DNA from: an uncultured Lachnospiraceae bacterium
GTDB lineage: Bacteria; Bacillota; Clostridia; Lachnospirales; Lachnospiraceae
Reading direction: 5' to 3'
NCBI GenBank assembly: GCA_910587935.1
Contig: CAJUNP010000013.1
Location: 2,070 to 66,069, forward strand
Length of the DNA: 64,000 bases
A program made the position numbers and the translations under genes. Every line of letters starts with the position of its first letter. Within the stretch, counting starts at the first letter, position 1. This document shows positions 7,149 to 59,500 of this stretch, one piece after another. The notes below the pieces were generated by a model. The model was not told the DNA's origin and ran no database searches. It was given only the letters and a program-made list of their open reading frames with translations.

Positions 7149-7263
7149 AAACATCCTCCTGACAAAAGCGTCGTCAACTGTTACCGTAATATTATAGCAC
7201 ATGCCGTATACTCCCGTAAAGTGTTGCTGCGGTTTGTCATATCGCGTATTTTCAGGACAATTT

Positions 7264-7509
7264 TCAGCGGTTATTTTCTTTTTCGCGGTACTTTTTTTGG
7301 CGCATGTCTTCTCTCAAAAGATCGTCCAACTCGGGTTCTTTTTGTCTGCGTGACTGAAACAGTCCGATCAGAATGCAAAATGCTGCCGGAACGGCGCTGA
7401 TCCAGAACGCCCATGACGGCGCTTCAGGATCGGCCATGGACCAGAATAAATACGGCATATAAAGTAACATTCCCACAAGAACCAGACGAAATCCTGTTAT
7501 ATTTTTCAT
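7264..7509 (-). CDS. Small membrane protein, unknown function
   Basis: ATG 7509 follows GGAAGGGA. Two hydrophobic helices (FRLVLVGMLLYMPYLF, AFWISAVPAAFCILIGLF) and a basic C-terminal tail. The start is uncertain; the ORF is open to 7542. Confidence 0.4.
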   Translation of the reverse strand: MKNITGFRLVLVGMLLYMPYLFWSMADPEAPSWAFWISAVPAAFCILIGLFQSRRQKEPELDDLLREDMRQKKYREKENNR

Positions 7510-7907
7510 ATTACTCATCCCTTCCGGGCATAAAGAGCCCATTATTGTCTGCGTATATGATTACCCTCAAAATCTTTAGTATACAAATCCATATACAGGG
7601 TCACTTCTTTTAAGTTTTTTTGCCGCCTATGGTATAAGGAATATAAACGACGCCATGCTGGTCAAAGCTGATAACCGATTCGCCCTCGTTTAGGGAGTTT
7701 GGCGTCACTCTTCGGTAGCGCCGTTGTAAACAGGATCTGCATGATAACATGAAATACGGGTAACCTGGCCGGTAGAAGGTATGGCCGTACGGATGCTTTG
7801 TATATGGACTCATTATTGCATGAAAAAAGAAATGCGTCAATGTTGCGAATGGGAATACACAGTGCTAAAATTAAAATATAAATTATGTATAACAGGAGGA
7901 CGCAGAA

Positions 7908-8750
7908 ATGGCACTGATTCAGGCAAATATTTTTTCGGAATGTCTTATGAGAACCATTCCCGTTCACGCCGTGATCCCTTCGGATAAGGTTGTGATGCCG
8001 GGGGAAGGACCAAAAAAGAAAAAGAACTTCAAAACCCTGTACCTGCTTAACGGACTGATGGGCAATGACACAGACTGGGTGACGGGCACACGTATCGAAC
8101 GGTGGGCAAAAGACAAAGATCTGGCTGTTATTATGCCGGGCGGAGAGAATCGTTTTTACATAGATCAGGATATTCCCGGTCAGAAGTACGGCGAATGGAT
8201 TGGCAGGGAACTGGTGGAGCTGACCAGGGCGCTTTTCCCTCTATCCGATAAAAAGGAGGATACCTTTATTGCAGGACTTTCCATGGGCGGTTACGGCGCG
8301 TTGGTGAACGGACTAAAATATTCCGATACCTACAGCCATATCGGAGCGCTTTCTTCGGCGCTGATTCTGGATACGGTTGAAGCGTCTTCCTATGACGCTC
8401 CATGGATTACCACGAACCGGTACTATTTTGAACATGTCTTTGGAGACATTGGTAAACTGAGGGGCAGCGATAAGGATTATGAAGCCTTAATCCTGCAACT
8501 GAAAAAGGAGAATCGTGAGATTCCGAAACTGTATATGGCTATCGGTACGGAAGACGAACTGCTCATTGAAGCAAACCGCCGTTACAGGGATTTTCTGGAG
8601 GAACAGAATGTGCCTGTAGAATATGTGGAAGCGCCTGGCGCCCATGAATGGGATTTCTGGGACTCTCAGATTAAGAAGGTACTGGATTGGCTGCCTTTGG
8701 GCGAGGTCTGTGAGGGACTTAGCAGCGGGCATGTTCAGGTGGATAAGTAA
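7908..8750 (+). CDS. Alpha/beta hydrolase, putative esterase family (EstA / S-formylglutathione-hydrolase-like)
   Basis: 280 aa. RBS AGGAGGA lies 7 nt upstream. Nucleophile elbow GLSMGGYGAL. C-terminal PGAHEWDFW is typical of the PF00756-type esterases. Confidence 0.75.
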   Translation: MALIQANIFSECLMRTIPVHAVIPSDKVVMPGEGPKKKKNFKTLYLLNGLMGNDTDWVTGTRIERWAKDKDLAVIMPGGENRFYIDQDIPGQKYGEWIGRELVELTRALFPLSDKKEDTFIAGLSMGGYGALVNGLKYSDTYSHIGALSSALILDTVEASSYDAPWITTNRYYFEHVFGDIGKLRGSDKDYEALILQLKKENREIPKLYMAIGTEDELLIEANRRYRDFLEEQNVPVEYVEAPGAHEWDFWDSQIKKVLDWLPLGEVCEGLSSGHVQVDK

Positions 8751-8813
8751 TAACAAACAACAGCCTCGCAGATCCCGGCAATACTCAGATTTCCGCGAGG
8801 CTGTTTCCGGCTT

Positions 8814-9776
8814 CTATTTTTTCGCCTTTGCCTTGGCGGCCGCGTCCTTTAAACTGACGGCATTTCCTTTCACCACAATTTCCGGCATACTGCGCAGGAA
8901 GCTGGAAATTCGGCTGTATCCATAGTCCTTCAGGTCAAAATCAGGATATTTCTTTTTCAGATAATCATAAATAACCGAGAGGTTATCGATAGTTCCGCCG
9001 TTTTTCTCAATCATTTTGATAATCTTGTCATGAAGCACTACTGCATTCGCTTCCAGGACACTGACGTTATAGCTGGAATTTTCTTTGGAGATTTCCAGCT
9101 TGGGGCACTTATCGCGGATAAAAGTCATAAGCTTTGTGTAACCGTAGTTACGCACGTCAAAATCTGTAAATCTGCTGTTTAAACGGCTGCCGATTTCGCC
9201 CATATAGGTGGGTTTTCCGTTGTTTTCATTTTCATTGACAATGGCAATGATCGCATCTTCAATTTCACTGATGGAGGTCATCGTGTTAGATTTGCTGGCG
9301 TCAGCAATATCGCCGGCAGCGGCGCTTGAGGCCTGCTCCGAAATCAGGTTAAGACGGATGAATTTATTACAGGCTTTCGTCAGAGCCGTAGGCGTTTTCG
9401 ATTCTCCCATGCCGATCACATACATATTGGCTTCCCGAAGCCGCATGGCAAGCCGCGTAAAATCGCTGTCGCTTGTAATCAGGCAGAAACCGTCAACATT
9501 GCCGGAATAGAGAATATCCATAGCGTCGATCACCATGGTCATATCGGTGGAATTTTTGCCGGTGGTATAATTAAACTGCTGAACCGGTGTAATGGAATTT
9601 TCCAGCAAAACCTCTTCGTTCCAGCCGTTATTTTTTGACCAGTTCCCATAGATCCGGCGGTAGGACGCAAAACCGTACGTTTCCAGTTCGTTAAATATAA
9701 TCGGTGCGTACCTGGAACTTACGTTGTCTGAATCGATCAGCACGGCAATCCGCATTTTTTTTTCTGTAATGTTCAT
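8814..9776 (-). CDS. NYN-domain (LabA/DUF88-like) protein with two OST-HTH/LOTUS domains
   Basis: ATG 9776 follows GGAGGTTGTT. NYN motifs RIAVLIDSDNV and FCLITSDSDFTRLAMRLRE. Two LOTUS-like repeats (YMGEIGSRLNSRFTDFDVRNYGYTKLMTFI and LSVIYDYLKKKYPDFDLKDYGYSRISSFL). The 9777-9896 extension in the ORF track has no RBS support. Confidence 0.75.
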   Translation of the reverse strand: MNITEKKMRIAVLIDSDNVSSRYAPIIFNELETYGFASYRRIYGNWSKNNGWNEEVLLENSITPVQQFNYTTGKNSTDMTMVIDAMDILYSGNVDGFCLITSDSDFTRLAMRLREANMYVIGMGESKTPTALTKACNKFIRLNLISEQASSAAAGDIADASKSNTMTSISEIEDAIIAIVNENENNGKPTYMGEIGSRLNSRFTDFDVRNYGYTKLMTFIRDKCPKLEISKENSSYNVSVLEANAVVLHDKIIKMIEKNGGTIDNLSVIYDYLKKKYPDFDLKDYGYSRISSFLRSMPEIVVKGNAVSLKDAAAKAKAKK

Positions 9777-9808
9777 AACAACCTCCATATTTATCAAAAG
9801 TAAAGAAA

Positions 9809-10291
9809 TCAGTCCAGACACATGACAATGATCCGTCTTGGCGTAGTCTGCGCCGGAATACTGCGGGTGGTGGTGGAGTAATACACTAAAAGCCAATTAT
9901 TTCCGGGGTTACAGCTGAACGTTTGTCCGTTGCAGGTTGTAACCATGGTGGAAGATGCAATGTTTAATTTTAAGGTATTGTCGCGGTTGACAAGATTCTC
10001 ATCAAAATACATTAAATCAACAAATTCCTGCGGTGATTTCTGAGAAATAACCAGAGCCCTGTATTGAGGCGGAAAAATCAGGGGAACCGGCGCGTCGGCA
10101 TCGTAGAAAGCAATGACAGACATTCCTTTTCGCAGACGAAGATTATTAACGACATAAGTGTCGGGTCCCAGTATCATATTTACGATTCCGTTTCTGGTAA
10201 CGATCGAAACCTCAAGGGTGCAGCACTGATCCGTGACATTGGTAACGTTCTGGACCAGGCCGGTGACAGAAGCATAATTCTGAACAGCCAT
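9809..10291 (-). CDS. Hypothetical protein (160 aa)
   Basis: Good RBS (GGAAAGGAG, 6 nt) before ATG 10291. Co-directional with and 32 nt upstream of the NYN gene. No recognisable motif. Confidence 0.5.
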   Translation of the reverse strand: MAVQNYASVTGLVQNVTNVTDQCCTLEVSIVTRNGIVNMILGPDTYVVNNLRLRKGMSVIAFYDADAPVPLIFPPQYRALVISQKSPQEFVDLMYFDENLVNRDNTLKLNIASSTMVTTCNGQTFSCNPGNNWLLVYYSTTTRSIPAQTTPRRIIVMCLD

Positions 10292-10342
10292 ATAAGGCTC
10301 CTTTCCTAATTCTTTTCTCTTATTTTATGATAAGAAAGCTTC

Positions 10343-10776
10343 TTAGTTCGTCAGTTCCCGCTTCATTTTCATAAATACAGGCACATACATCGCCATAGTA
10401 AAAAGCATCATAACAATGCACATACCACAGAATAAGTTTACAAAAAAATCCGACATATCCGTTACCGTGACAAAAATCAGAAGCGCTGCAAAAATCAGAG
10501 CGGCGCACACCTTTCCAAACCACATGGCTCCGTTTAACATTTTTCCCCGTCTTAAAAACAGAATACCCATAATGCCCATAAATCCTTCCTTTATAACGGT
10601 GAGCGCAACTAAAATCCAAAGCTGCGGATAGCGGGAGCAGAGACAGAGCATGACTGCAAAATGCGTCAGCTTATCTGCGACAGGATCTAAAGCTTTCCCG
10701 AGACGTGAAATCATATTAAATTTTCTTGCAATTTTTCCGTCCAGAAAATCGGTCTTGGTATTAAAACTCCTGTTCC
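10343..10776 (-). pseudogene. 5'-truncated CDP-alcohol phosphatidyltransferase (PgsA-like) gene
   Basis: The reading frame encodes the complete family motif DGKIARKFNMISRLGKALDPVADK (D-G-x2-A-R-x8-G-x3-D-x3-D). However, it is open for only 12 codons upstream of the DG before an in-frame TAA (10777-10779). That stretch has no ATG, GTG or TTG. The first ATG (10714) lies inside the motif, and the expected N-terminal TM helix is absent. Confidence 0.55.
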
Positions 10777-10937
10777 ATTACTGTGTCTGATTATAGCATA
10801 TTTTTAGTAAATATGGTGAATAAAGATATAAAAAAGTTAAATTTTAAAATGTTTTCTATGCAGCCTGATAAAAATGAGATATAATAGTGAAAATAACACT
10901 AAAATTTCGTTTTGTAGCAGGAAGGAGAATTAAATCT

Positions 10938-13900
10938 ATGTTAAAGCGATTGTTAACTGTTGTTTTAGCTGGCTGTCTGGCGTTTGATGCGGCCCCGATG
11001 ACGGCTTTTGCAACAGAAGCGCTGCCTGTCGTGACTGTGGAAGACAGCACGGAAGAGGCGGCGGAGTCAACGGAACAGGAAGAAGACGTTGAACCGGCGG
11101 ATATTTCCGGAAACGCCGCGCCGGAAGACGGCGGGGAGTCTGCCGGGGAAGCTTCCGGTGAGGAAGAGTCTTCGGAGGAAGAAAGTATTCAGGAAGAAAA
11201 TCCGGAGGAAACCGGGCCGGAAGAAAGCATACCGGCGGAGGACATCATTCCGGAACCGGATGCGGATATTCCCGCGGAAATCTCTGAAGAGAGCGGTATG
11301 GCGCCGGAAGACGCCGATGTCTTTCTGGAGCTGGCCGAAGATACGGGGAGTGATGTAACGCCCCTGAAATATGGCGAAACCAATTCTGTAACGGCGCCCT
11401 ATGACACGACGAATTGGTATTCTTTTACGGCTCCTGAGGACGGGTATTATGATTTCTATGCCAGTGCGGCGAAGTCTGAAATATCGTCTTATGCGTCTGC
11501 CTACTTAGATTTGTATGATGCTGTGGATGGCAGACAGTTAGCGTCTGAATATGTAACCTCTTCCGCGCCTGGCATATTGGCGGGTGATTCTTTAATGAAA
11601 GCGGGGGATACCCTGTATTTGAAGACATACCACTACAGCAGCGGCAGCGGCGATGTAGCCGTCAGCTTGGATGTCAGGAAACGAACCACATTTTTGACGG
11701 AACGGGAGGACGGAAGCTATTCTTATGAGACGGAAGATTATAAGCTTCTTATAGAACCGGAAGCAGGATATTACAATCTTCGTTTCCATATCAGCATGGC
11801 GCCTCCGGAAGGAAAAACACTGGGGAACTATTCATTGCAATGCAGTGCGGTTAGAATGGGCAGTGGGATAGAACGCAGTGCAGATTTCAGCGCACTTTAC
11901 CCTGACAGAATCATTGACATTCCGGTAGAGACAGGAACAGAATACAAAATACAGCTTATTCTGAAGGATTCTGAAGGAAATAGTCTGGTATTATCACCGG
12001 AAAACGGTAGTCTCGTAATGTGCACCCAGTGGACGGAAGAGCGGCTGGTTGTTGTTGACGAGAACACAAGATCCGAAATGAACCAAATCGTTTTTGATAT
12101 TGACACTTCCGACTATTTAAAGTGTTACTATGCTCCTGCGGACGGCTCCGAGGAAGAAAAGGAGAAGAGTTCGTATAAAATCGGGCGGTTTGAATGGTCC
12201 TTTTCAAATCTGCAGCCGGATACGGAATATTATTTTCAGTTTACCGATCAAAACGGTACGATGCTTCTGGAAAAAAGAGTATCCACCAGTGCGGGTACAA
12301 TGAAAACGGAATACCGTGCGGAGGCTTATTTAAATGATTCCGGGCAGACGGAATTATCTCTGGAGGCGGATGTATCCGGTTATGAGGGGAATACAGGGTT
12401 TGCGTATCTGTATTATGAATATACCGATGCATTAGGAAGAAAACAGTCGGGTTCACAGTATAAAGATCTCAGTGAGATTGCCGATGGCCGCTTTACAATA
12501 AATAAAAATATTACGGATGCGGTGTTAGAGGCGGATAAGCAGTATGATATTACCGTATGGATTAAGTTGGGAGATTTAACTTTCAAAAAGGAAATAAAGA
12601 CAATTACTGCTCCTGCCGCGGCCTTTGATCCGGCGAATCTGGGCTTTAGCGTGGAAGCCGATTCGGAACAAAATACCGCGGCCGGTTATACGGTACAGTT
12701 ACCGGCGGAGTCACGCGGCAGTATCGCAGGGAATATATTTTACAGACCGTGCGGCAGTCAGGAACCGTACCGCTCTAAGACAGTTACGCTGTCTTCGGCG
12801 GATACATATGTGTCAGGGACAATAAGTGGCTTGCAAGCCGGTGGTAAATATGAATTTATTCTCTTTTTGGGCGGTGTACGGAAGGAACAGACAGTAACGC
12901 TTAAGGACGGCAGCCTGAAGCTTACGCAGATTGGCGACGGGGAAACCAATGCGTTTGACCTTGTGCGTACCTGCAGGGTGGAAAGCGAGAATCCGGAAGA
13001 ACTGGCTGAAGAATATTATTTAAACCTTGCTTATTGGTCAGGCAGCTCTTACTCCGGTCTGGGCAGTCCTGTTGTTTTGAATGCGGAGAATCAATATCAG
13101 GCGGAGATAAAGACCACTTCCGGCAAAATGTTGGAGCCGGATACGGATTATCATTTGAGATGGACAGTCAGTACGACACAGTACGGATCGGCAGTATGTA
13201 CGCTGTATGAGACCGTGCATACAAAAAAAGCGGAACTCGTATGGGAGTCAGTAAAAAGTTTCTATAACGAACAACAGTACAAGATAAGTTTAAAAGAAGA
13301 AGATACGGTCAATTTCGGGGAATCTGCCGGTAAAAGCGTATATTTATACGCATATATGAGAAAAACCGGTGAAACCGGCTATCGGAATACGGGAAAAAGC
13401 GTATATTTGTCAGGAGATAATAAATATAGCGGTACGATCAGTTTCCAGGGACTGACGGAAGAAACTTCCTATGATATTTCTTTGCGCAGCAATTCCGGCA
13501 GGGAATATGACGCCGTGTCATTTACGACTCCGAAGGATACGAGAAATCTGTATGTGAAGAGCGAAAAGCCGGGAATTCATAAAACCGAAATTAATTATGC
13601 GATGGACGGTATTGACCAGGGAATGTCCGGCTATGTATCTATTTACATCCGTGAAAAGGGCGCGCAAATCTGGGAGAAATCCGACAGTAGTTATTTTAAT
13701 GGCCCGAGTACATATGAAAGGTATTTTAATATCACCCGCTACAATGAGGCGGAGTTAAAAGAGAATACGGTTTACGAATATCAGATGGGATTTGGCGGCA
13801 GTTACAATACGCCGTTGGCAGAGCTTGAAAGAATCGTTACCGGAGAATTTTTAACGGGAAAAGATACACGAAGCTTATCGGGTGCAGGTATATCGGCAGG

Positions 13901-53461: not shown

Positions 53462-53670
53462 AAATATCACCCTCCTATAAGTTATTATATGCTATAACTC
53501 TTTTGAAATCAGATATTGAAAATAGTAAAATAGACGAAACAAGATATAGTATGACCTGAAGTGCACAATTTAAGATATCAAATCATTAAAATAACATATT
53601 CCGGAAGATGGTACTGCATGACATCATATAAATTAGAAAATTTACTATGTGGGCAGAAGGGGGTATTGTT

Positions 53671-54369
53671 ATGTTAAATTATATTTGGGCATTTATGATT
53701 TTGGTGGGAGTTCTTTTCGGAGCGGTCACGGGAAAAATGGAGGCTGTTACAAACGCGGCAATTGATTCGGCAGGAGAAGCCGTTTCCTTATGCGTCACCA
53801 TGCTTGGTGTTATGGCTTTATGGGTAGGACTTATGGAAATTGCCAGGAATTCCGGCCTGATTGCTAAGATGACCCGGGGGATACAGCCTTTTATTTCTTT
53901 TATGTTTCCGAAAATTCCCCAGGGTCATGCGGCAAGAGAATACATTTCGACGAATATTATTGCGAATGTTATGGGATTAGGCTGGGCCTGTACGCCGGCA
54001 GGATTGAAGGCCATGGAGGAGCTGGCGAAGCTGGAGGAGGAGAGGGGGACGCCGGGATATGTGTCGGCAGGGGAAGGCATTTTTGCAGACGGAAAGAAAA
54101 AGGGGAACAAGACAGGTAAGAGCGGCGTTGAGTTGCCCGTGGTGGCAAATGGAAAGAGCGGCAGGGTTGCCAGCAATGAGATGTGCACGTTTTTGATTTT
54201 GAATATTTCTTCTTTGCAATTAATACCCGTGAATATGATCGCGTACAGAAGCCAGTATGGGAGCGTGAATCCGGCGGGGATTATTGCGCCGGCGATTGTG
54301 GCGACGTTTGTCAGTACGGCGGTAGCGGTGGTATATTGTAAGGTGAAGGATGGGAGGCGGAGAGTTTGA
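53671..54369 (+). CDS. spmA: Spore maturation protein A / nucleoside-recognition (Gate) domain membrane protein
   Basis: ATG 53671 follows GAAGGGGG. MLNYIWAFMILVGVLFGAVTG ... ANVMGLGWACTPAGLKAMEEL ... MCTFLILNISSLQLIPVNMIAYRSQYGS.NPAGIIAPAIVATFVSTAVAVVYCKV. It contains an unusually long G/K-rich loop (GYVSAGEGIFADGKKKGNKTGKSGVELPVVANGKSG). Confidence 0.85.
   Translation: MLNYIWAFMILVGVLFGAVTGKMEAVTNAAIDSAGEAVSLCVTMLGVMALWVGLMEIARNSGLIAKMTRGIQPFISFMFPKIPQGHAAREYISTNIIANVMGLGWACTPAGLKAMEELAKLEEERGTPGYVSAGEGIFADGKKKGNKTGKSGVELPVVANGKSGRVASNEMCTFLILNISSLQLIPVNMIAYRSQYGSVNPAGIIAPAIVATFVSTAVAVVYCKVKDGRRRV
54001..54369 (+). repeat. Direct repeat copy A: 3' end of spmA (in frame, part of the intact gene)
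   Basis: Homologous to 56641-56941. Shares the block GLKAMEELAKLE and the last roughly 70 codons. The identical 15-mer CTGGCGAAGCTGGAG is at 54022-54036. Confidence 0.85.
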
Positions 54370-54492
54370 GGACTTTCCGCTTTATTCATTAGTTATATCC
54401 CAATGTTTTATCGGATACATATAAGAAAATATATGAGAAAAACAAGGTATAGCATATATAAAATTATGATATTATTGGATTATATATTGCCA

Positions 54493-54521
54493 TTGACATA
54501 TAAAAATTAGAAATGTATAAT
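54493..54521 (+). promoter_or_regulatory. Perfect-consensus sigma-A promoter of the cassette
   Basis: TTGACA (54493-54498), exactly 17 nt, TATAAT (54516-54521). It lies 29 nt upstream of ATG 54551. Confidence 0.65.
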
Positions 54522-54550
54522 AGCATAAAATATTGGAAAGGACTAATTGG

Positions 54551-55531
54551 ATGAATTATCAAAATATTATTGATGACTTTATAACAGAATATCCAGATTA
54601 TAAAAGTGATGTAATGAATTTTACCGAATATCTGGAAATACATTGGGGAAATTCTTTGTCGGGAGAACCACTCCGTATTTTACTTAAGGGTATAGACGTT
54701 GAATTTATATTACAGAGCCTGATTTATAATGTGGAAGATATACAGCGATATAAGAGCAAGACAAAGGCTAAACGGTATGCCACCGTGGTAGGATTGCTTT
54801 TTAACTACATCCGAAAGACTACAGATATTGCAAACCCTGAATTATATGATGCAATTTCGTTTAACCGCCTGCGGGAAAATTCATATATGAAACGAATGAT
54901 GGCATATATTGAGAAATGTGATTTGCTTGCGGGTATAGTTGAGCAGGAACCGTTGACGTTTATGCAAGCCGAAGAACTTTTGGCATGGTCAAATGAACAG
55001 CTTGAAGATACAGAATGGGGAGGGGCTACGGATCTTAAGAAGGCAATGGCGGCTATCGGAATAAAGATGATGATGCTTTATGGGATCACATATCGTGAAT
55101 TGAGAAAAATCAAATGGGAGAATTTCGATGAATATTATGGTTTTATTACAGTAAATGGTTTTGAACTTCGTTTGCCGCCCAAATTGTCAAGGCAGTTACA
55201 GCAAGTGCAGAAATTTGTTTTTCAGAATCATGTAAAGAGCAATGAGGACTTGCTTTTTACGGATGGGAATGGAGAACCGTGGGGGGAGATAACATCTTCT
55301 TCTGGAATTCCCGACTATTTAGGGACTTTGATAGAAGTTACAAGTGTAACCAGCATTGTCAAGTATGGAATAGGACAACTTCTCAAGGCTGGGTTAAGTG
55401 ATTCTGTTATTAAAAAAATAACAGGTGCAAGTGATAAACTGATTCAAGGGTGTCTCTTGACAGAGGATGATGAACTCAAAAAGACTATAAATAATAAAAT
55501 TGTTATGGCAGAGTTATATTATGAGTTTTGA
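54551..55531 (+). CDS. Tyrosine-recombinase-like protein lacking most catalytic residues
   Basis: ATG 54551 lies 8 nt after AAAGGA, giving 326 aa. An N-terminal SAM-like/core-binding-like region is followed by LYGITYRELRKIKWENFD (Arg-I box retained), LLFTDGNGEPW, SVTSIVKYGIGQLLKAGL in place of H-x-L-R-H, ITGASD in place of LGHS, and LIQGCLLT in place of the Tyr box. Confidence 0.6.
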   Translation: MNYQNIIDDFITEYPDYKSDVMNFTEYLEIHWGNSLSGEPLRILLKGIDVEFILQSLIYNVEDIQRYKSKTKAKRYATVVGLLFNYIRKTTDIANPELYDAISFNRLRENSYMKRMMAYIEKCDLLAGIVEQEPLTFMQAEELLAWSNEQLEDTEWGGATDLKKAMAAIGIKMMMLYGITYRELRKIKWENFDEYYGFITVNGFELRLPPKLSRQLQQVQKFVFQNHVKSNEDLLFTDGNGEPWGEITSSSGIPDYLGTLIEVTSVTSIVKYGIGQLLKAGLSDSVIKKITGASDKLIQGCLLTEDDELKKTINNKIVMAELYYEF

Positions 55532-55563
55532 AGAAGATAGAGCAGACAGGGAGAGATAAATCT

Positions 55564-56598
55564 GTGGATGAAAATAAAGGTGAAGTTTTAATCTATCAGT
55601 CAGAAGACGGATTAACCAATGTCGAAGTAACTGTACGGGATGAAACGGTTTGGCTTTCCCAACAACAAATGGCAGAGCTGTTTCAAACGTCGAGAACAAA
55701 TGTTGTAGAACACATAAAACATATTTTTGCAGAAGGAGAATTAGACGAAGCCTCAACCTGTCGGAATTTCCGACAGGTTCGGCAGGAGGGAACAAGGCAG
55801 GTTACAAGAGAGATACCATATTATAATCTGGATATGATTATATCTTTGGGATATAGAATAAAGTCTCTTATAGCAACGAGATTCAGGAAATGGGCAACAG
55901 AACGTTTAAAGGAATACATGGTTAAGGGCTTTACGATGGATGACGAACGCCTTAAAGGCAATGGTGGAGGGAATTATTGGAAAGAGCTTTTAGACCGTAT
56001 TCGTGATATTCGTTCTTCGGAAAAAGTGCTTTATCGTCAGGTTTTGGATTTATATGCCACAAGTGTAGATTATGACCCCCATAGTGAGGAGTCGATTCGT
56101 TTTTTTAAAATAGTACAAAATAAGCTTCATTTTGCGGCACATGGACATACTGCGGCAGAAATAGTTTTTGAGCGTGCTGATGCACAAAAACCTTTTATGG
56201 GATTGACATCCTTTTCAGGAGAGTTACCTGCTCTTAAAGATATTGGAATTGCAAAGAATTATTTAAAGGAAGATGAACTAAAGATACTAAATAATTTGGT
56301 ATCTGGTTATTTTGATTTGGCGGAAATTAATGCGATTGAACATCGCCCAATGTACATGAATGATTATGTTGAACAGCTTGATTCGGTATTATCGTCAGGA
56401 AATAGAAAAATACTCAGTGATGGTGGCAGAGTAAGCCATGCTCAGGCAATGAAAAAAGCAAAAGAAGAATACCAAAAGTATCAGGCAGCCACAATTTCTC
56501 CGGTTGAGGACGCTTACCTAAAAACAGTAAAAATGGCAGCTAAAGCAGCAAAACAGCAAAACAGGCTGGTAGAAAAAACAAATACTGATGGACGATAA
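55564..56598 (+). CDS. RhuM-family protein (PF13310-like)
   Basis: VLIYQSEDGLTNVEVTVRDETVWLSQQQMAELFQTSRTNVVEHIKHIFAEGEL ... YNLDMIISLGYRIKS..ATRFRKWATERLKEYMVKGF ... WKELLDRIRDIRSSEK is the hallmark RhuM N-terminal pattern. GTG 55564 (7 nt after GGGAGAG) is preferred. TTG 55528, which overlaps the upstream stop, is the alternative. Confidence 0.7.
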   Translation: MDENKGEVLIYQSEDGLTNVEVTVRDETVWLSQQQMAELFQTSRTNVVEHIKHIFAEGELDEASTCRNFRQVRQEGTRQVTREIPYYNLDMIISLGYRIKSLIATRFRKWATERLKEYMVKGFTMDDERLKGNGGGNYWKELLDRIRDIRSSEKVLYRQVLDLYATSVDYDPHSEESIRFFKIVQNKLHFAAHGHTAAEIVFERADAQKPFMGLTSFSGELPALKDIGIAKNYLKEDELKILNNLVSGYFDLAEINAIEHRPMYMNDYVEQLDSVLSSGNRKILSDGGRVSHAQAMKKAKEEYQKYQAATISPVEDAYLKTVKMAAKAAKQQNRLVEKTNTDGR

Positions 56599-56640
56599 TG
56601 ATGTTATTTTTAAAGTTCGTGTCATTAACTTGACACAAGG

Positions 56641-56941
56641 GGGGCTGAAGGCGATGGAGGAACTGGCGAAGCTGGAGCAAGATAGAGGGAATCCGGCGTA
56701 TTTGAGTGATAGTAAGAGAACGGGTGGAAAGCAGGAGCGTATTGCAAGTAATGAAATGTGTACATTTTTGATATTAAACATTTCATCGTTACAGCTGATC
56801 CCCGTTAATATGATTGCTTACAGGCAGCAGTACGGGAGCGTGAACCCGGCGGGAATCATTGCCCCGGCAATTATGGCGACATTTGTGAGTACGGCGGTGG
56901 CAGTAGTATACTGCAAAGTGAAAAATAGGAAAAAAATCTAA
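56641..56941 (+). pseudogene. Direct repeat copy B: headless 3' fragment of an spmA gene
   Basis: Encodes GLKAMEELAKLEQDRGNPAYLSDSKRTGGKQERIASNEMCTFLILNISSLQLIPVNMIAYRQQYGSVNPAGIIAPAIMATFVSTAVAVVYCKVKNRKKI. The roughly 110 N-terminal residues of SpmA are absent, and the upstream 17 codons of the tracked ORF are unrelated. Confidence 0.8.
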
Positions 56942-56959
56942 ATAACTTATAAAAATCCA

Positions 56960-56987
56960 TTGATGTTGCAAAAAAATATGATACAAT
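56960..56987 (+). promoter_or_regulatory. Putative promoter of the cas operon (extended -10)
   Basis: TTGATG (56960-56965), 16-nt spacer ending in TG, then TACAAT (56982-56987). It lies 71 nt upstream of cas3. Confidence 0.45.
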
Positions 56988-57058
56988 ATTACTAATAAAA
57001 ATTATTTATTTGCATTTTCCACAAACGAAAAATCAGGAGATAATTTATTGTAATTAAT

Positions 57059-59500
57059 ATGATTGCACACATTTCAGAAGACGGACTTAAAAGAGAAGAA
57101 TCTGTAGCGGAACACACCGAAAAGACCAGATTGTTATGCGATCAAAAAGGGAAGCGGTGCGGTATTTCCCAGCTTATGTCATTATGCGCAATTTTGCATG
57201 ATATGGGAAAAAACAAGCGCAAATTTGACGAATACCTGCGTGCGGATGAAAAAGTAAGACAAAAGTTAAAAGGCAGCATTGCCCATGCTTCTACAGGGGC
57301 AAAGTATGTCTATGACCTGCTCCGTGACGATACCGCCAACATGCGGTTGATGACAGAGATGATTTCTTATGCGTCAGCTGCGCATCACGGGTTATTTGAC
57401 TGTGTGGATCCGGAATATACCGATAGATTTTCAAAAAAATTAAGTGCGGTTGACGATTATGATGAAGCTTGCCGCAATGCAAAGCGGGATTATCTGGATG
57501 CGTATGATCAGGATCAATTATTTGCGGAGTCGTTTTGTGAATTTCAAGCTGTTTTGGAAAAAATTAAAATCATATATAACGAACTTAAGCCTGCGCTGTT
57601 ATCTAAGGGCAATCGAGATATAAAAGAACGATTATCCGGCTGCAGGCTCTTTTTGTTTTCCTGTTTGCAGCGCCTGATTTTATCCATATTAATTGATTCG
57701 GACTGGGAGGCAACCTCCGATTTTATGGAGAATGTGGACACAATGTCAAAAAAGCCGCGTTTTCCTGTAAAAGAGCGCTTTAAAAAAGCTGGGGAAAATT
57801 TTGCGTCATATATGCGGAAAAAACAGCAGTCCATAAATATTTCCGGACTGACGGATAAAGAAAAAATCATTTTTGAAGCAAGAAATGCGCTGCAGGAGGA
57901 ATGTAGACAGTTTGCAAAATATCCTGCCGGGATATACTGTCTGCCTGTCCCTACCGGCGGCGGAAAGACGCTCGGCAGCCTTGCGTATGCATTGGAATAC
58001 TGCAGGCTTCACCCCGAAACGGAACGCGTTATCTATGTGTCTCCATATATCAGCGTTACGGAGCAGAATGCGCAGGTATTCCGCGAAGCCATAGGCAATG
58101 ACGACTGGATATTGGAACATCATTCTTCCGTTGTCAGAAATGAAAGGACAGAAGATGAGGATTACAAAACCGAAAAGCTGTCGAGGTATGACATAAACTG
58201 GGAAGAACCGTTTATCTGTACAACATTCGTTCAGTTTATGAATACGCTTTTTTCGGATAAAAGCGAGTCCGTACGGCGTATGCACAGGCTTGTCAACGCG
58301 GTTGTCATTATCGATGAAGTGCAGTCGATGCCGTTAAAATGCGTACATACTTTTAACTATATGATTAACTTCCTGAATAAAGTATGCAATACGGATATTG
58401 TTCTGTGTACCGCGACGCAGCCGGCTTTAGCGGAAACCGAGTGCCCTGTCTGTTACGGAAAACCGCAGTACATGATTAAAAATGTTGCCGACTGGTTTTA
58501 TAAGTTTGAACGGGTCAGGATACATACGCCCGGAATAGACGAAAAGTATACCTTTAAGAGCCTCGGGGACGAAATTCTGGAAAGGACAGAGCGGTTCAAA
58601 TCAATTCTTGTGGTGCTGAATACGAAGTCGGCGGTGAGAAAGCTGTATGATATATTAAAAGCGCGGGGGATTCCTGCGGAGTATCTTACCACAAACTTAT
58701 GCGCCGAGCACAGAAGCGATAAGATTAAGTCCATAAAAGAAATACTGGAGAAAAAGCAGAAGCCGATTGTTGTAGTCAGTACGAATCTGATCGAGGCGGG
58801 CGTGGATATTTCCTTTGAATGTGTATACCGTTCTATGGCGGGGCTGGACAGTCTGGCACAGACGGCGGGACGGTGCAACCGAAACGGCGAACTGGATTAT
58901 GGGACAATCCGCCTGATTCAGCTTGAGGATGAAAAAACCGGAAATATGGAAGAATTACAGCAGAATATCAGGGCGGCGGAAAACGTTCTATACCAGTTTG
59001 AGAACAGCGATAAGCGGGAAAGCCTTCTGATGCCCGGATGGATGGAAACATATTATCGGAATGTGTACTGTAATATGTCGGACACAATGAATTTTCCGAT
59101 CAAAAAACTGGATACAAATATACTGGAACTCCTGTCGGCCGGATTTGGTACGCCGGGAACCATGGGAGACAGGAAAAACCAGATGAATCAGGCGTATAAG
59201 ACCGCGGGCCGGGAGTACCGGGTGATAGACGACGATTCATTTGGCGTAATTGTGCCATATAAGAAAGGGGCGGAGATTATTGAAGCCATTCAGACGGCGG
59301 CGGATACGGCGCAGATAAAAACACATATAAGAAATGCCCAGAGGTATACGGTAAACGTCAGGGGAAGCCAGTTGAAAAAATTCAGCGGACTGATACAGGC
59401 GGTAAGCGATTCCGTACCGGGCCTTTATATGGCGGCCGCGCCGGGATCGTACAGCCTGGAATATGGGATTACGCCGGAGTGGGAGACCCTTATATTTTAA
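57059..59500 (+). CDS. cas3: CRISPR-associated helicase/endonuclease Cas3 (HD nuclease + SF2 helicase), type I-C context
   Basis: 813 aa. HD domain VAEHTEKT...AILHDMGKNKRKF...AAHHGLFD. Helicase motif I LPVPTGGGKTLGSL, motif II VVIIDEVQSM, motif III CTATQP, motif VI AQTAGRCNRNG. Confidence 0.9.
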   Translation: MIAHISEDGLKREESVAEHTEKTRLLCDQKGKRCGISQLMSLCAILHDMGKNKRKFDEYLRADEKVRQKLKGSIAHASTGAKYVYDLLRDDTANMRLMTEMISYASAAHHGLFDCVDPEYTDRFSKKLSAVDDYDEACRNAKRDYLDAYDQDQLFAESFCEFQAVLEKIKIIYNELKPALLSKGNRDIKERLSGCRLFLFSCLQRLILSILIDSDWEATSDFMENVDTMSKKPRFPVKERFKKAGENFASYMRKKQQSINISGLTDKEKIIFEARNALQEECRQFAKYPAGIYCLPVPTGGGKTLGSLAYALEYCRLHPETERVIYVSPYISVTEQNAQVFREAIGNDDWILEHHSSVVRNERTEDEDYKTEKLSRYDINWEEPFICTTFVQFMNTLFSDKSESVRRMHRLVNAVVIIDEVQSMPLKCVHTFNYMINFLNKVCNTDIVLCTATQPALAETECPVCYGKPQYMIKNVADWFYKFERVRIHTPGIDEKYTFKSLGDEILERTERFKSILVVLNTKSAVRKLYDILKARGIPAEYLTTNLCAEHRSDKIKSIKEILEKKQKPIVVVSTNLIEAGVDISFECVYRSMAGLDSLAQTAGRCNRNGELDYGTIRLIQLEDEKTGNMEELQQNIRAAENVLYQFENSDKRESLLMPGWMETYYRNVYCNMSDTMNFPIKKLDTNILELLSAGFGTPGTMGDRKNQMNQAYKTAGREYRVIDDDSFGVIVPYKKGAEIIEAIQTAADTAQIKTHIRNAQRYTVNVRGSQLKKFSGLIQAVSDSVPGLYMAAAPGSYSLEYGITPEWETLIF

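Follow-up and report, generated by a model that had tools for sequence, protein, structure and literature searches.

A putative phage-defence cassette array at the 3' end of spmA in a mouse-gut Lachnospiraceae bacterium, led by an apparently non-catalytic tyrosine-recombinase homologue

In recombinase-associated defence loci (RADS), a small serine recombinase gene is co-transcribed with an antiphage gene; it is not needed for protection and serves as a marker of many kinds of defence system (Andersen et al., PLoS Biol 2026, PMC13552941). Here we describe a locus of comparable layout in a 64,000-nucleotide stretch of DNA (the window; GenBank assembly GCA_910587935.1, contig CAJUNP010000013.1, positions 2,070 to 66,069 of the forward strand) from an uncultured mouse-gut Lachnospiraceae bacterium. 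Two genes on the + strand lie between an intact spmA and the cas3 gene of a type I-C CRISPR-Cas operon: gene 1, the leader (54551–55531, 326 aa), whose product is predicted to have a two-domain tyrosine-recombinase fold without catalytic residues, and a RhuM-family gene (gene 2, 55564–56598, 344 aa from its GTG start). We consider it probable that positions 54001–56640 represent a single member of an array of phage-defence cassettes assembled in series at the spmA 3' end, with RhuM as the lone effector and gene 1 as a non-catalytic leader. RADS is the closest analogue of this pattern: in both, a recombinase-family gene stands in a short operon with a variable defence gene, which for gene 1 falls into ~12 cargo classes. 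The two differ in that the fold of gene 1 is that of a tyrosine and not a serine recombinase, with all catalytic residues lost, and in that gene 1 also leads CRISPR-Cas, which RADS is rarely found with.

Tandem accretion of integrative and conjugative elements (ICEs) and cis-mobilizable elements (CIMEs) is known from Streptococcus thermophilus, and the spmA locus resembles it in the site-specific insertion within a gene, in tandem arrays between repeated att-like sites, and in units without a recombinase that stand beside a recombinase-bearing element with a common end. Serine-integrase ICEs usually disrupt their target, whereas spmA here stays intact by way of a replacement 3' end, and the spmA units, unlike ICEs, are tiny (2.6 kb) defence cassettes with a single cargo. 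As in integrons, the locus offers a platform at a fixed site, where promoter-less cargo would be expressed from a promoter at the recombinase-gene end, and its cassettes end in a conserved imperfect palindrome. Unlike in integrons, the recombinase homologue lies inside the cassette, co-directional with the cargo and apparently catalytically dead, the cassettes carry a gene fragment, and the 24-nt motif at their right end forms a hairpin no stabler than those of shuffled sequences (−4.7 kcal/mol, z = −0.6). These differences set the locus apart from integrons proper, with their active IntI-type integrase outside the cassettes and their attC sites that fold as hairpins. The WYL-domain regulators BrxR and CapW lie upstream of many defence systems, and gene 1, a putative DNA-binding gene, likewise precedes many unrelated ones and may regulate them; its fold is unrelated, and no ligand-binding domain is evident.

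A precedent for a recombinase that has outlived its chemistry is TnsF of Tn6022-like Tn7 transposons, a tyrosine recombinase that has lost its activity and serves as a target selector (Faure et al. 2023, PMC10293859), having been kept for DNA recognition in a mobile element. Gene 1 differs from it in lacking N-terminal zinc fingers, in retaining a complete catalytic-domain fold and in having a targeting role that is only putative, and no TnsA, TnsB, TnsC or TniQ is present in the cassette or in the Pfam-annotated neighbourhoods. The second gene belongs with PDC-S05, a single-gene defence candidate in PADLOC. One other gene of this group, with a RhuM domain, lowered by itself the plating of T7 and T5 ~1000-fold and that of T4 ~10-fold in E. 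coli B (preprint, bioRxiv 10.1101/2024.09.26.614923), and RhuM genes are enriched beside type I restriction-modification (R-M) systems and programmed inversions (odds ratio 14; PMC9881135).

The leader gene and its cargo

The whole cassette spans 54001–56640 (~2.6 kb) and would consist of a replacement spmA 3' end, a strong promoter, the leader gene, one swappable cargo and a right end of ~35 nt. The operon has a consensus sigma-70 promoter at 54493–54521 (+ strand, TTGACA-17-TATAAT, 12 of 12 positions matched), the sole perfect match within 54300–57100, and most gene 1 homologues have similarly strong promoters upstream. The open reading frame (ORF) of gene 1 runs from 54533 or 54551 to 55531, with its TGA stop at 55529–55531; the true start is almost certainly ATG 54551, because the homologues are all 324–335 aa long and begin with MNY or MDY. 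This stop overlaps a possible TTG start of the next gene at 55528, as the first-pass annotation of this DNA had stated, and its preference for GTG 55564 is borne out by a GGGAGAG ribosome-binding site, by an ATG at the same position in locus L023 and by PADLOC profiles that begin at this codon. The promoter and the two abutting genes are likewise where that annotation had placed them; a gap of 32 nt separates genes of one direction behind one promoter, and no terminator-like site was found after rhuM.

The cargo behind gene 1 is interchangeable. In 45 species-level gene 1 loci from GTDB genomes, and in further metagenome contexts, gene 1 invariably came first, with a strong promoter upstream at most loci, and shared its direction with a varied defence cargo that starts ~20–260 nt (in most loci ~20–110 nt) past the gene 1 stop. 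The ~12 cargo classes, known and candidate defence systems among them, comprise RhuM (13 loci and the window), a HipA_C kinase with a HIRAN protein (PADLOC PDC-M03A/B), a 973-aa type IIG restriction-methylase with a 222-aa protein, an entire I-C cas operon that begins 55 nt past gene 1, Wadjet JetABCD, a KilA-N protein (PDC-S22), AAA-ATPase_like+PDDEXK_9, a 151-aa protein with an 888-aa STAND-like NTPase, two small paired genes with the look of a toxin-antitoxin module, and proteins of 602, 512, 282 and 274 aa with no matches. A place of the unit in phage defence, raised as a possibility by the first-pass annotation, is supported. Gene 1 copies 96–97% identical to that of the window lead the 602-aa or the AAA-ATPase_like+PDDEXK_9 cargo and not RhuM, and nucleotide identity to the window ends, depending on the locus, at 55549–55574, that is, 18–43 nt past the gene 1 stop. 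In Lachnospiraceae bacterium JLR.KK008 (L001–L004, e.g. L001 10001–19103), a gene 1 homologue 71% identical to that of the window stands at the head of a complete type I-C cas operon; it lies 55 nt before cas3, and RhuM is absent. The specific association of gene 1 with cas genes that these loci hinted at was rejected, since other cargos were found.

The first-pass annotation had proposed that the two genes form a dedicated module. The pair does occur outside this genome, in 13 further species-level loci and down to identities of 52% for gene 1 and 43–50% for RhuM; the part that fails is the exclusiveness, since other cargos follow gene 1 and RhuM occurs without it. Gene 1 would be co-transcribed with whatever cargo comes next and be no specific partner of RhuM.

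The RhuM family assignment of the second gene is secure over its full length and at curated cut-offs, with matches to Pfam PF13310 Virulence_RhuM (E = 1.7e-108, 362 bits against a cut-off of 33.7, positions 1–247 of 252) and to PDC-S05 (E = 3e-156, 517.7 bits, positions 3–328 of 330), and the product contains the peptide VWLSQQQMAELFQTSRTNVVEHIKHIF, quoted in the first-pass annotation as its N-terminal DNA-binding-like region. More than 8000 homologues exist, the top 120 of them at least 75% identical. In three contexts, RhuM proteins 81–85% identical to that of the window have no gene 1 in their surroundings: one adjoins HsdR and GmrSD, one stands alone amid arginine-biosynthesis genes, and one lies in a RepA_N/ORF6N element. 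These contexts are consistent with single-gene antiphage activity. Because each gene is found apart from the other, the cargo varies and a PDC-S05 gene protects alone, RhuM would act as a stand-alone effector and gene 1 as a generic leader. The RhuM structure predicted from a shallow alignment was unusable (pLDDT 39.6), and no homologous solved structure was found. A motif of RhuM residues 189–199, HFAAHGHTAAE (window 56128–56160), is near-invariant at 10 of its 11 residues in alignment A5 down to 39% identity; no structure or family annotation accounts for it, and it could be a metal-binding or catalytic site.

Several further features of the loci were observed. Small pairs of 85–89 aa and 89–134 aa lie directly before the 24-nt motif in three species with differing upstream cargo (L031 11004–11539, L035 9282–9952, L043 4752–5410), the second gene PIN-like by eye; these pairs may be a stabilizing toxin-antitoxin module of the cassettes. 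A leaderless cassette at L034 13207–16425 holds a 326-aa ORF that looks like a radical-SAM protein by eye, together with partners of 534 and 206 aa; this set, like the 602-, 512-, 282- and 274-aa cargos, is a candidate for new defence genes. In one lineage, an IS200/IS605-type Y1 transposase gene (PF01797) is located between spmA and gene 1 (L058 9144–9650, L059 8814–9269, L060 9195–9650).

Fold, family and conservation of gene 1

Gene 1 has no match in Pfam (E ≤ 0.1), NCBIfam or PADLOC, and its profile matched no recombinase among PDB sequences; fold comparison alone revealed its origin. An AlphaFold2 model built with 35 homologues (pLDDT 84.6) displays the core-binding and catalytic domains of the two-domain tyrosine-recombinase fold, and the best 39 Foldseek matches to this model in the PDB are all tyrosine recombinases, headed by XerA (E = 2e-6, probability 1.00) and followed by XerH, Tn1549 Int, Cre, lambda Int and IntI. 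At the sequence level, PF00589 is weakly matched by 16 of 37 distant gene 1 relatives (best E = 2.3e-6), and gene 1 itself does not reach the Pfam gathering threshold for this family; there is also a weak match to phrog_1 integrase (E = 0.0033).

A profile search of 1.84 billion representatives (E ≤ 1e-3) defined a gene 1 family of 281 clusters at 50% identity, so far confined to Lachnospiraceae and relatives, and no member keeps the canonical R-K-H-R-H/W-Y catalytic set. In the family alignment A3, whose members are 18–71% identical to gene 1, the only invariant residues are K172, G178, P209 and T291, while K271 and C301 are near-invariant, C301 down to 18% identity. Assigned by hand from motif spacing, the beta-hairpin Lys position is taken by E205 (which is variable), His II by S268, Arg II by K271, His/Trp III by A293 and the Tyr nucleophile by C301/L302. 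An hhalign comparison with E. coli XerD covers residues 13–203 only, at a probability of 2.2%; it pairs ‘YGITYREL’ with ‘TGLRVSEL’ and so puts T180 at Arg I, which agrees with the motif logic. Judged by these alignments, gene 1 appears to be a non-catalytic recombinase homologue, with the canonical chemistry missing family-wide. Since the catalytic residues are missing in all 281 clusters, the loss is ancient and not a local decay. The dN/dS values of gene 1 against 11 homologues (0.03–0.10) indicate strong purifying selection on a functional gene, no pseudogene. The label of “dead recombinase” given at first therefore fits the fold and its missing residues but not the gene.

Relatives of gene 1 were found neither in phages nor in plasmids (IMG/VR scan with alignment A2; tblastn against phage and plasmid collections), so the close family is chromosomal. 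A metagenome scan with a distant clade of the family, A4, returned four loci in prophage-like contexts. Members of this clade in prophage-like regions (L068 8001–9002, L067 7971–8993, L070 7823–8824) are 38–44% identical to the first sequence of alignment A4 (P0165). By eye, the L068 member lies between a ParB-like gene and ORFs resembling terminase and portal genes, and that of L067 adjoins a TIR-looking ORF; ~3.7 kb downstream of the latter member is a 595-aa ORF whose look by eye and weak tblastn match suggest a serine recombinase.

Cassette ends and the array at spmA

The intact spmA of the window (53647–54369, + strand, 240 aa, from the ORF list, with a weak PF07670 Gate match) is a hybrid, the part up to ~54000 being resident and the part from 54001 moving with the cassette. 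This is evident from locus L013, where 9487–12146 matches window 54001–56704 at 95.6% nucleotide identity: the match begins exactly at 54001, and upstream of it L013 has the end of another unit and not spmA 5' sequence. The cassette ends at a displaced spmA 3' fragment (~56641–56941, + strand, residues ~116–240, located by alignment and tblastn), which is attR-like. The attB/attL-like left junction or “core” (GGATTGAAGGCCATGGAGGAGCTGGCGAAGCTGGAGG..., 53999–54063, + strand) is where the spmA-derived repeats begin in every cassette (codons ~113–116). The two spmA copies are 77–81% identical at the nucleotide level, with similarity starting at 53999–54005 and 56640–56646, and include a direct repeat, D2, that is 81% identical (54005–54063 versus 56646–56704). 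A dN of 0.10 with saturated dS between fragment and intact copy indicates that they derive from diverged spmA genes. This duplicated 3' end agrees with the first-pass view of a discrete, spmA-bounded insertion upstream of the type I-C cas operon.

The same boundary recurs across loci. Every displaced spmA fragment starts at spmA residue ~116 (‘GLKAMEELAKLE’), ~45 junctions from 30 loci share the boundary at spmA codon ~113–116, and a conserved sequence, AAAGTTCGTGTCAYTAACTTGACACAAGG, an imperfect 9-6-9 palindrome, immediately precedes each displaced fragment. The cassette right end in the window (56605–56640, + strand, ~35 conserved nt) holds the exact 24-nt motif TCGTGTCATTAACTTGACACAAGG at 56617–56640, its one copy in the window with 0 expected by chance. 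The motif has no match in Rfam and is present in 34 of 85 loci, always on the + strand, in the orientation of gene 1, and directly before the spmA 3' fragment. Up to four spmA fragments follow each other in one locus (L031, L034, L035), so that repeated att-like sites delimit the units at a single fixed target position. At L014 12075–12150 the motif is fused directly to the core (…TTGACACAAGGCGATGGAGG…) and the usual GGGGNYTGAAGG is lost. The number of G residues at the motif–core junction differs among cassettes (e.g. AAGGGGGGGGCTG in L034 near 20235), a heterogeneity that likely marks the crossover region.

Gene 1 is 96–98% identical across species whose spmA proteins are only 55–78% identical, and hence the unit spreads horizontally; vertical inheritance of gene 1 as a core neighbour of spmA was rejected on the same figures. 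The cassette travels in one piece: besides the L013 match, L034 9444–12752 and L035 1152–4460 are 99.4% identical at different array positions. Between L005 and L006, spmA and a cassette of gene 1 with type IIG R-M are common at 96.7% (7178–13278), with similarity beginning at the spmA start codon and unlike sequence upstream; the whole of spmA may travel with the block, or the neighbourhood may have been rearranged. In a diverged lineage (L044 97–2718), gene 1 and RhuM stand directly before spmB with neither duplicated spmA fragment nor motif, which indicates that the spmA–spmB gap is a hotspot even where the repeat architecture is missing.

The motif and gene 1 can occur apart. A search independent of gene 1, with the displaced-fragment ORF, gave ~100 clusters of fragment-length ORFs (~95–185 aa) among its best 120 matches, and arrays of motif and fragment without gene 1 exist (e.g. 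L080–L082 and L084, with AAA_15/21+RloB and DUF2971 cargos). Conversely, gene 1 and cargo occur away from spmA after gltBD (L024, L032, L042), adjoining a large serine recombinase (L049) and in L023, L041 and L055; at these seven loci self-BLAST found no repeats around gene 1, and no motif or motif-like palindrome was found at non-spmA gene 1 loci. Distant leader paralogues, ~25% identical, head neighbouring cassettes with an identical motif end (L037 12500–13582, L017 7079–8092). Decay is frequent and is seen as truncated RhuM (L019, L021, L040) and frameshifted gene 1 (L037, L050, L056), and leaderless cassettes keep the 3' half of a gene that elsewhere comes after gene 1.

Another element shares the right end of the cassettes. 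In L083 (4133–9966) and L085 (1757–7590), a PDDEXK_2 protein and, in tandem, three large serine recombinases of 564, 560 and 542 aa (Resolvase+Recombinase+Zn_ribbon_recom) lie directly before motif and fragment. The four proteins recur at 99.6–100% identity in L013 (3487–9317) and L016 (3486–9316), where motif, fragment and gene 1 follow at once. The element is preceded by sigma70_r4_2 and HTH_16 genes and always ends in the 24-nt motif adjoining an spmA fragment. Its PDDEXK_2 gene also occurs at the contig edge of L035, a fifth genome, while L080 and L084 keep ~480 nt of the third recombinase gene and the right end, indicating that the element decays in place. No conjugation genes were seen in the 10 kb fetched around it, and a search of all ORFs for canonical tyrosine recombinases (HxLRH...GH...Y regular expression) found none in the window and the first 70 loci. 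ICEs are known whose triplet serine integrases direct them to specific sites inside genes (Ambroset et al. 2016, PMC4701971). The three recombinases would act on the spmA core and the motif, most plausibly building the array in trans; the small cassettes would either be mobilized by them in trans or be reduced derivatives of such elements, and homologous recombination among the repeated spmA fragments and gene 1 copies may swap cargo and cassettes as well.

The next member of the array in the window, outside the cassette, is cas3 (57059–59500, + strand), with a promoter-like site of its own at 56960–56987 and followed by cas5, cas8c, cas7 and cas4; the homologues of this operon in L001 carry the Pfam domains Cas_Cas5d, Cas_Csd1, Cas_Cas7 and Cas_Cas4.

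The role of gene 1 and rival explanations

Gene 1 presumably binds DNA sequence-specifically without cutting it. The role we tentatively favour for this binding is to control or maintain the cassette operon: gene 1 stays associated with the cargo rather than with the att motif, its promoter has a consensus sequence of constitutive type, and two TTATYGG boxes recur upstream (54408–54414 and 54472–54478, + strand; −143 and −79 from the gene 1 start). The boxes have the same distances to the gene in L014, L016, L022 and L028, and the −143 box also recurs outside spmA (L023, L042); TGTTTTAT occurs in 11 of 27 upstream regions, against a maximum of 9 in shuffled sequences, and they are a possible operator or binding site to which we give little weight. 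The idea of a “regulator of the island”, one of those first offered, survives with a change: gene 1 may lead or regulate defence operons in general. Somewhat less probable is that gene 1 is an accessory or targeting factor in cassette recombination, for which its integrase-like position and the TnsF precedent speak, and catalysis through the invariant Cys is very unlikely.

Several observations weigh against the reading of the unit as a cassette with a lone effector and a regulatory leader. Gene 1 has the place that the integrase takes in a classical island, just behind the replaced 3' terminus of the target, and neighbouring cassettes each have their own leader paralogue, so that a role in mobility fits as well as a regulatory one. 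DNA binding and regulation by gene 1 are deduced from fold, position and conservation, and the boxes add little to them. No serine recombinase lies within the 64-kb window, and the left end of the triple-recombinase element was not seen, so that its action in trans is putative. The left limits of shared blocks vary in L034 (9444, 9579, 9799), which fits homologous and not site-specific exchange. Finally, the loci were found through gene 1 or the spmA fragment, and their frequencies are biased accordingly.

The leading alternative holds that gene 1 is the cassette's own recombination protein, either an unconventional recombinase acting through Lys172, Lys271 and Cys301 instead of the Arg/His/Tyr site or the obligatory non-catalytic partner (a target selector or directionality factor) of a recombinase acting in trans, and that the arrays are an integron-like capture platform. 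The full two-domain fold, the island-integrase position, the sharp junctions at one spmA codon with a palindrome resembling a core site, the same cassette at different array positions, paralogous leaders in adjacent cassettes and a Cys301 that is near-invariant to 18% identity and lies, by manual spacing, near the nucleophile position all argue for it, as does TnsF, an inactivated tyrosine recombinase employed as a target selector (PMC10293859). We nevertheless regard it as doubtful, given that no canonical catalytic residue is left family-wide, that motif and gene 1 each occur without the other, that an identical motif accompanies leaders only ~25% identical, that presumably competent serine recombinases lie at the same site with the same end, and that a constitutive-type promoter and co-transcription with cargo would be unusual for an integrase. 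Still more speculative is a bolder version in which gene 1 founds a new class of pseudo-recombinases with invariant Lys, Lys and Cys (“KKC”) that makes defence genes portable. Carried by the cassette itself, it would be the recombination factor of an integron-like platform that captures defence genes at spmA in Gram-positive bacteria, and would work either by unconventional Cys chemistry or as the partner that the large serine recombinases with the same att end require for targeting or directionality.

The remaining explanations concern the pair itself. An obligate two-component defence or abortive-infection system would fit the 32-nt spacing behind one promoter and the recurrence of the pair in 13 other species-level loci, with parallel divergence of both proteins in L044, L046, L047 and L051, but it is very unlikely in view of the near-identical gene 1 copies with other cargo, of RhuM proteins 81–85% identical without gene 1 in three contexts, of RhuM being a single-gene PADLOC candidate with one such gene protective alone, and of gene 1 leading R-M, CRISPR-Cas and Wadjet systems that need no such partner. 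That the pair is a toxin-antitoxin-like addiction module stabilizing the island is highly improbable: the tight two-gene layout and the toxin-antitoxin-looking small pairs beside the motif in L031, L035 and L043 might suggest it, yet each gene is found without the other and neither resembles known toxin-antitoxin families in Pfam or PADLOC. The first-pass suggestion that the pair was left stranded by a phase-variable type I R-M locus, its hsdS-shuffling recombinase dead, is effectively refuted. The enrichment of RhuM near type I R-M (PMC9881135) and one RhuM homologue beside HsdR and GmrSD had spoken for it; however, no hsd gene was seen beside gene 1 in any gene 1 locus with annotated genes, the cargo genes differ and share one strand, a canonical tyrosine recombinase was seen in none of the first 70 loci, and the ancient loss of catalytic residues in the whole family, the strong purifying selection on gene 1 and the precise, recurrent cassette boundaries all contradict it.

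RhuM/PDC-S05 as a defence candidate, RhuM near type I R-M, att-site accretion and ICEs with triple serine integrases are already known. Literature searches for spmA with an integrase or serine recombinase turned up nothing relevant, and we found no description of a “KKC” pseudo-recombinase family, of the gene 1 family leading at least 12 defence cargos or of an array at the spmA 3' end with the 24-nt end. The gene 1 family is a marker that flags defence cargo in gut Lachnospiraceae, which are poorly charted for defence systems, and the cargos without domains (602, 512, 282 and 274 aa) are candidate new defence genes. The idea of recombinases as defence markers is thereby extended from active small serine recombinases to an apparently dead tyrosine-recombinase lineage, and that such a lineage also marks defence argues that the conserved function is not strand exchange itself. 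The spmA array, with a 24-nt end common to the cassettes and the triple-serine-recombinase element, offers a system for studying how defence cassettes are captured, stacked and swapped between species.

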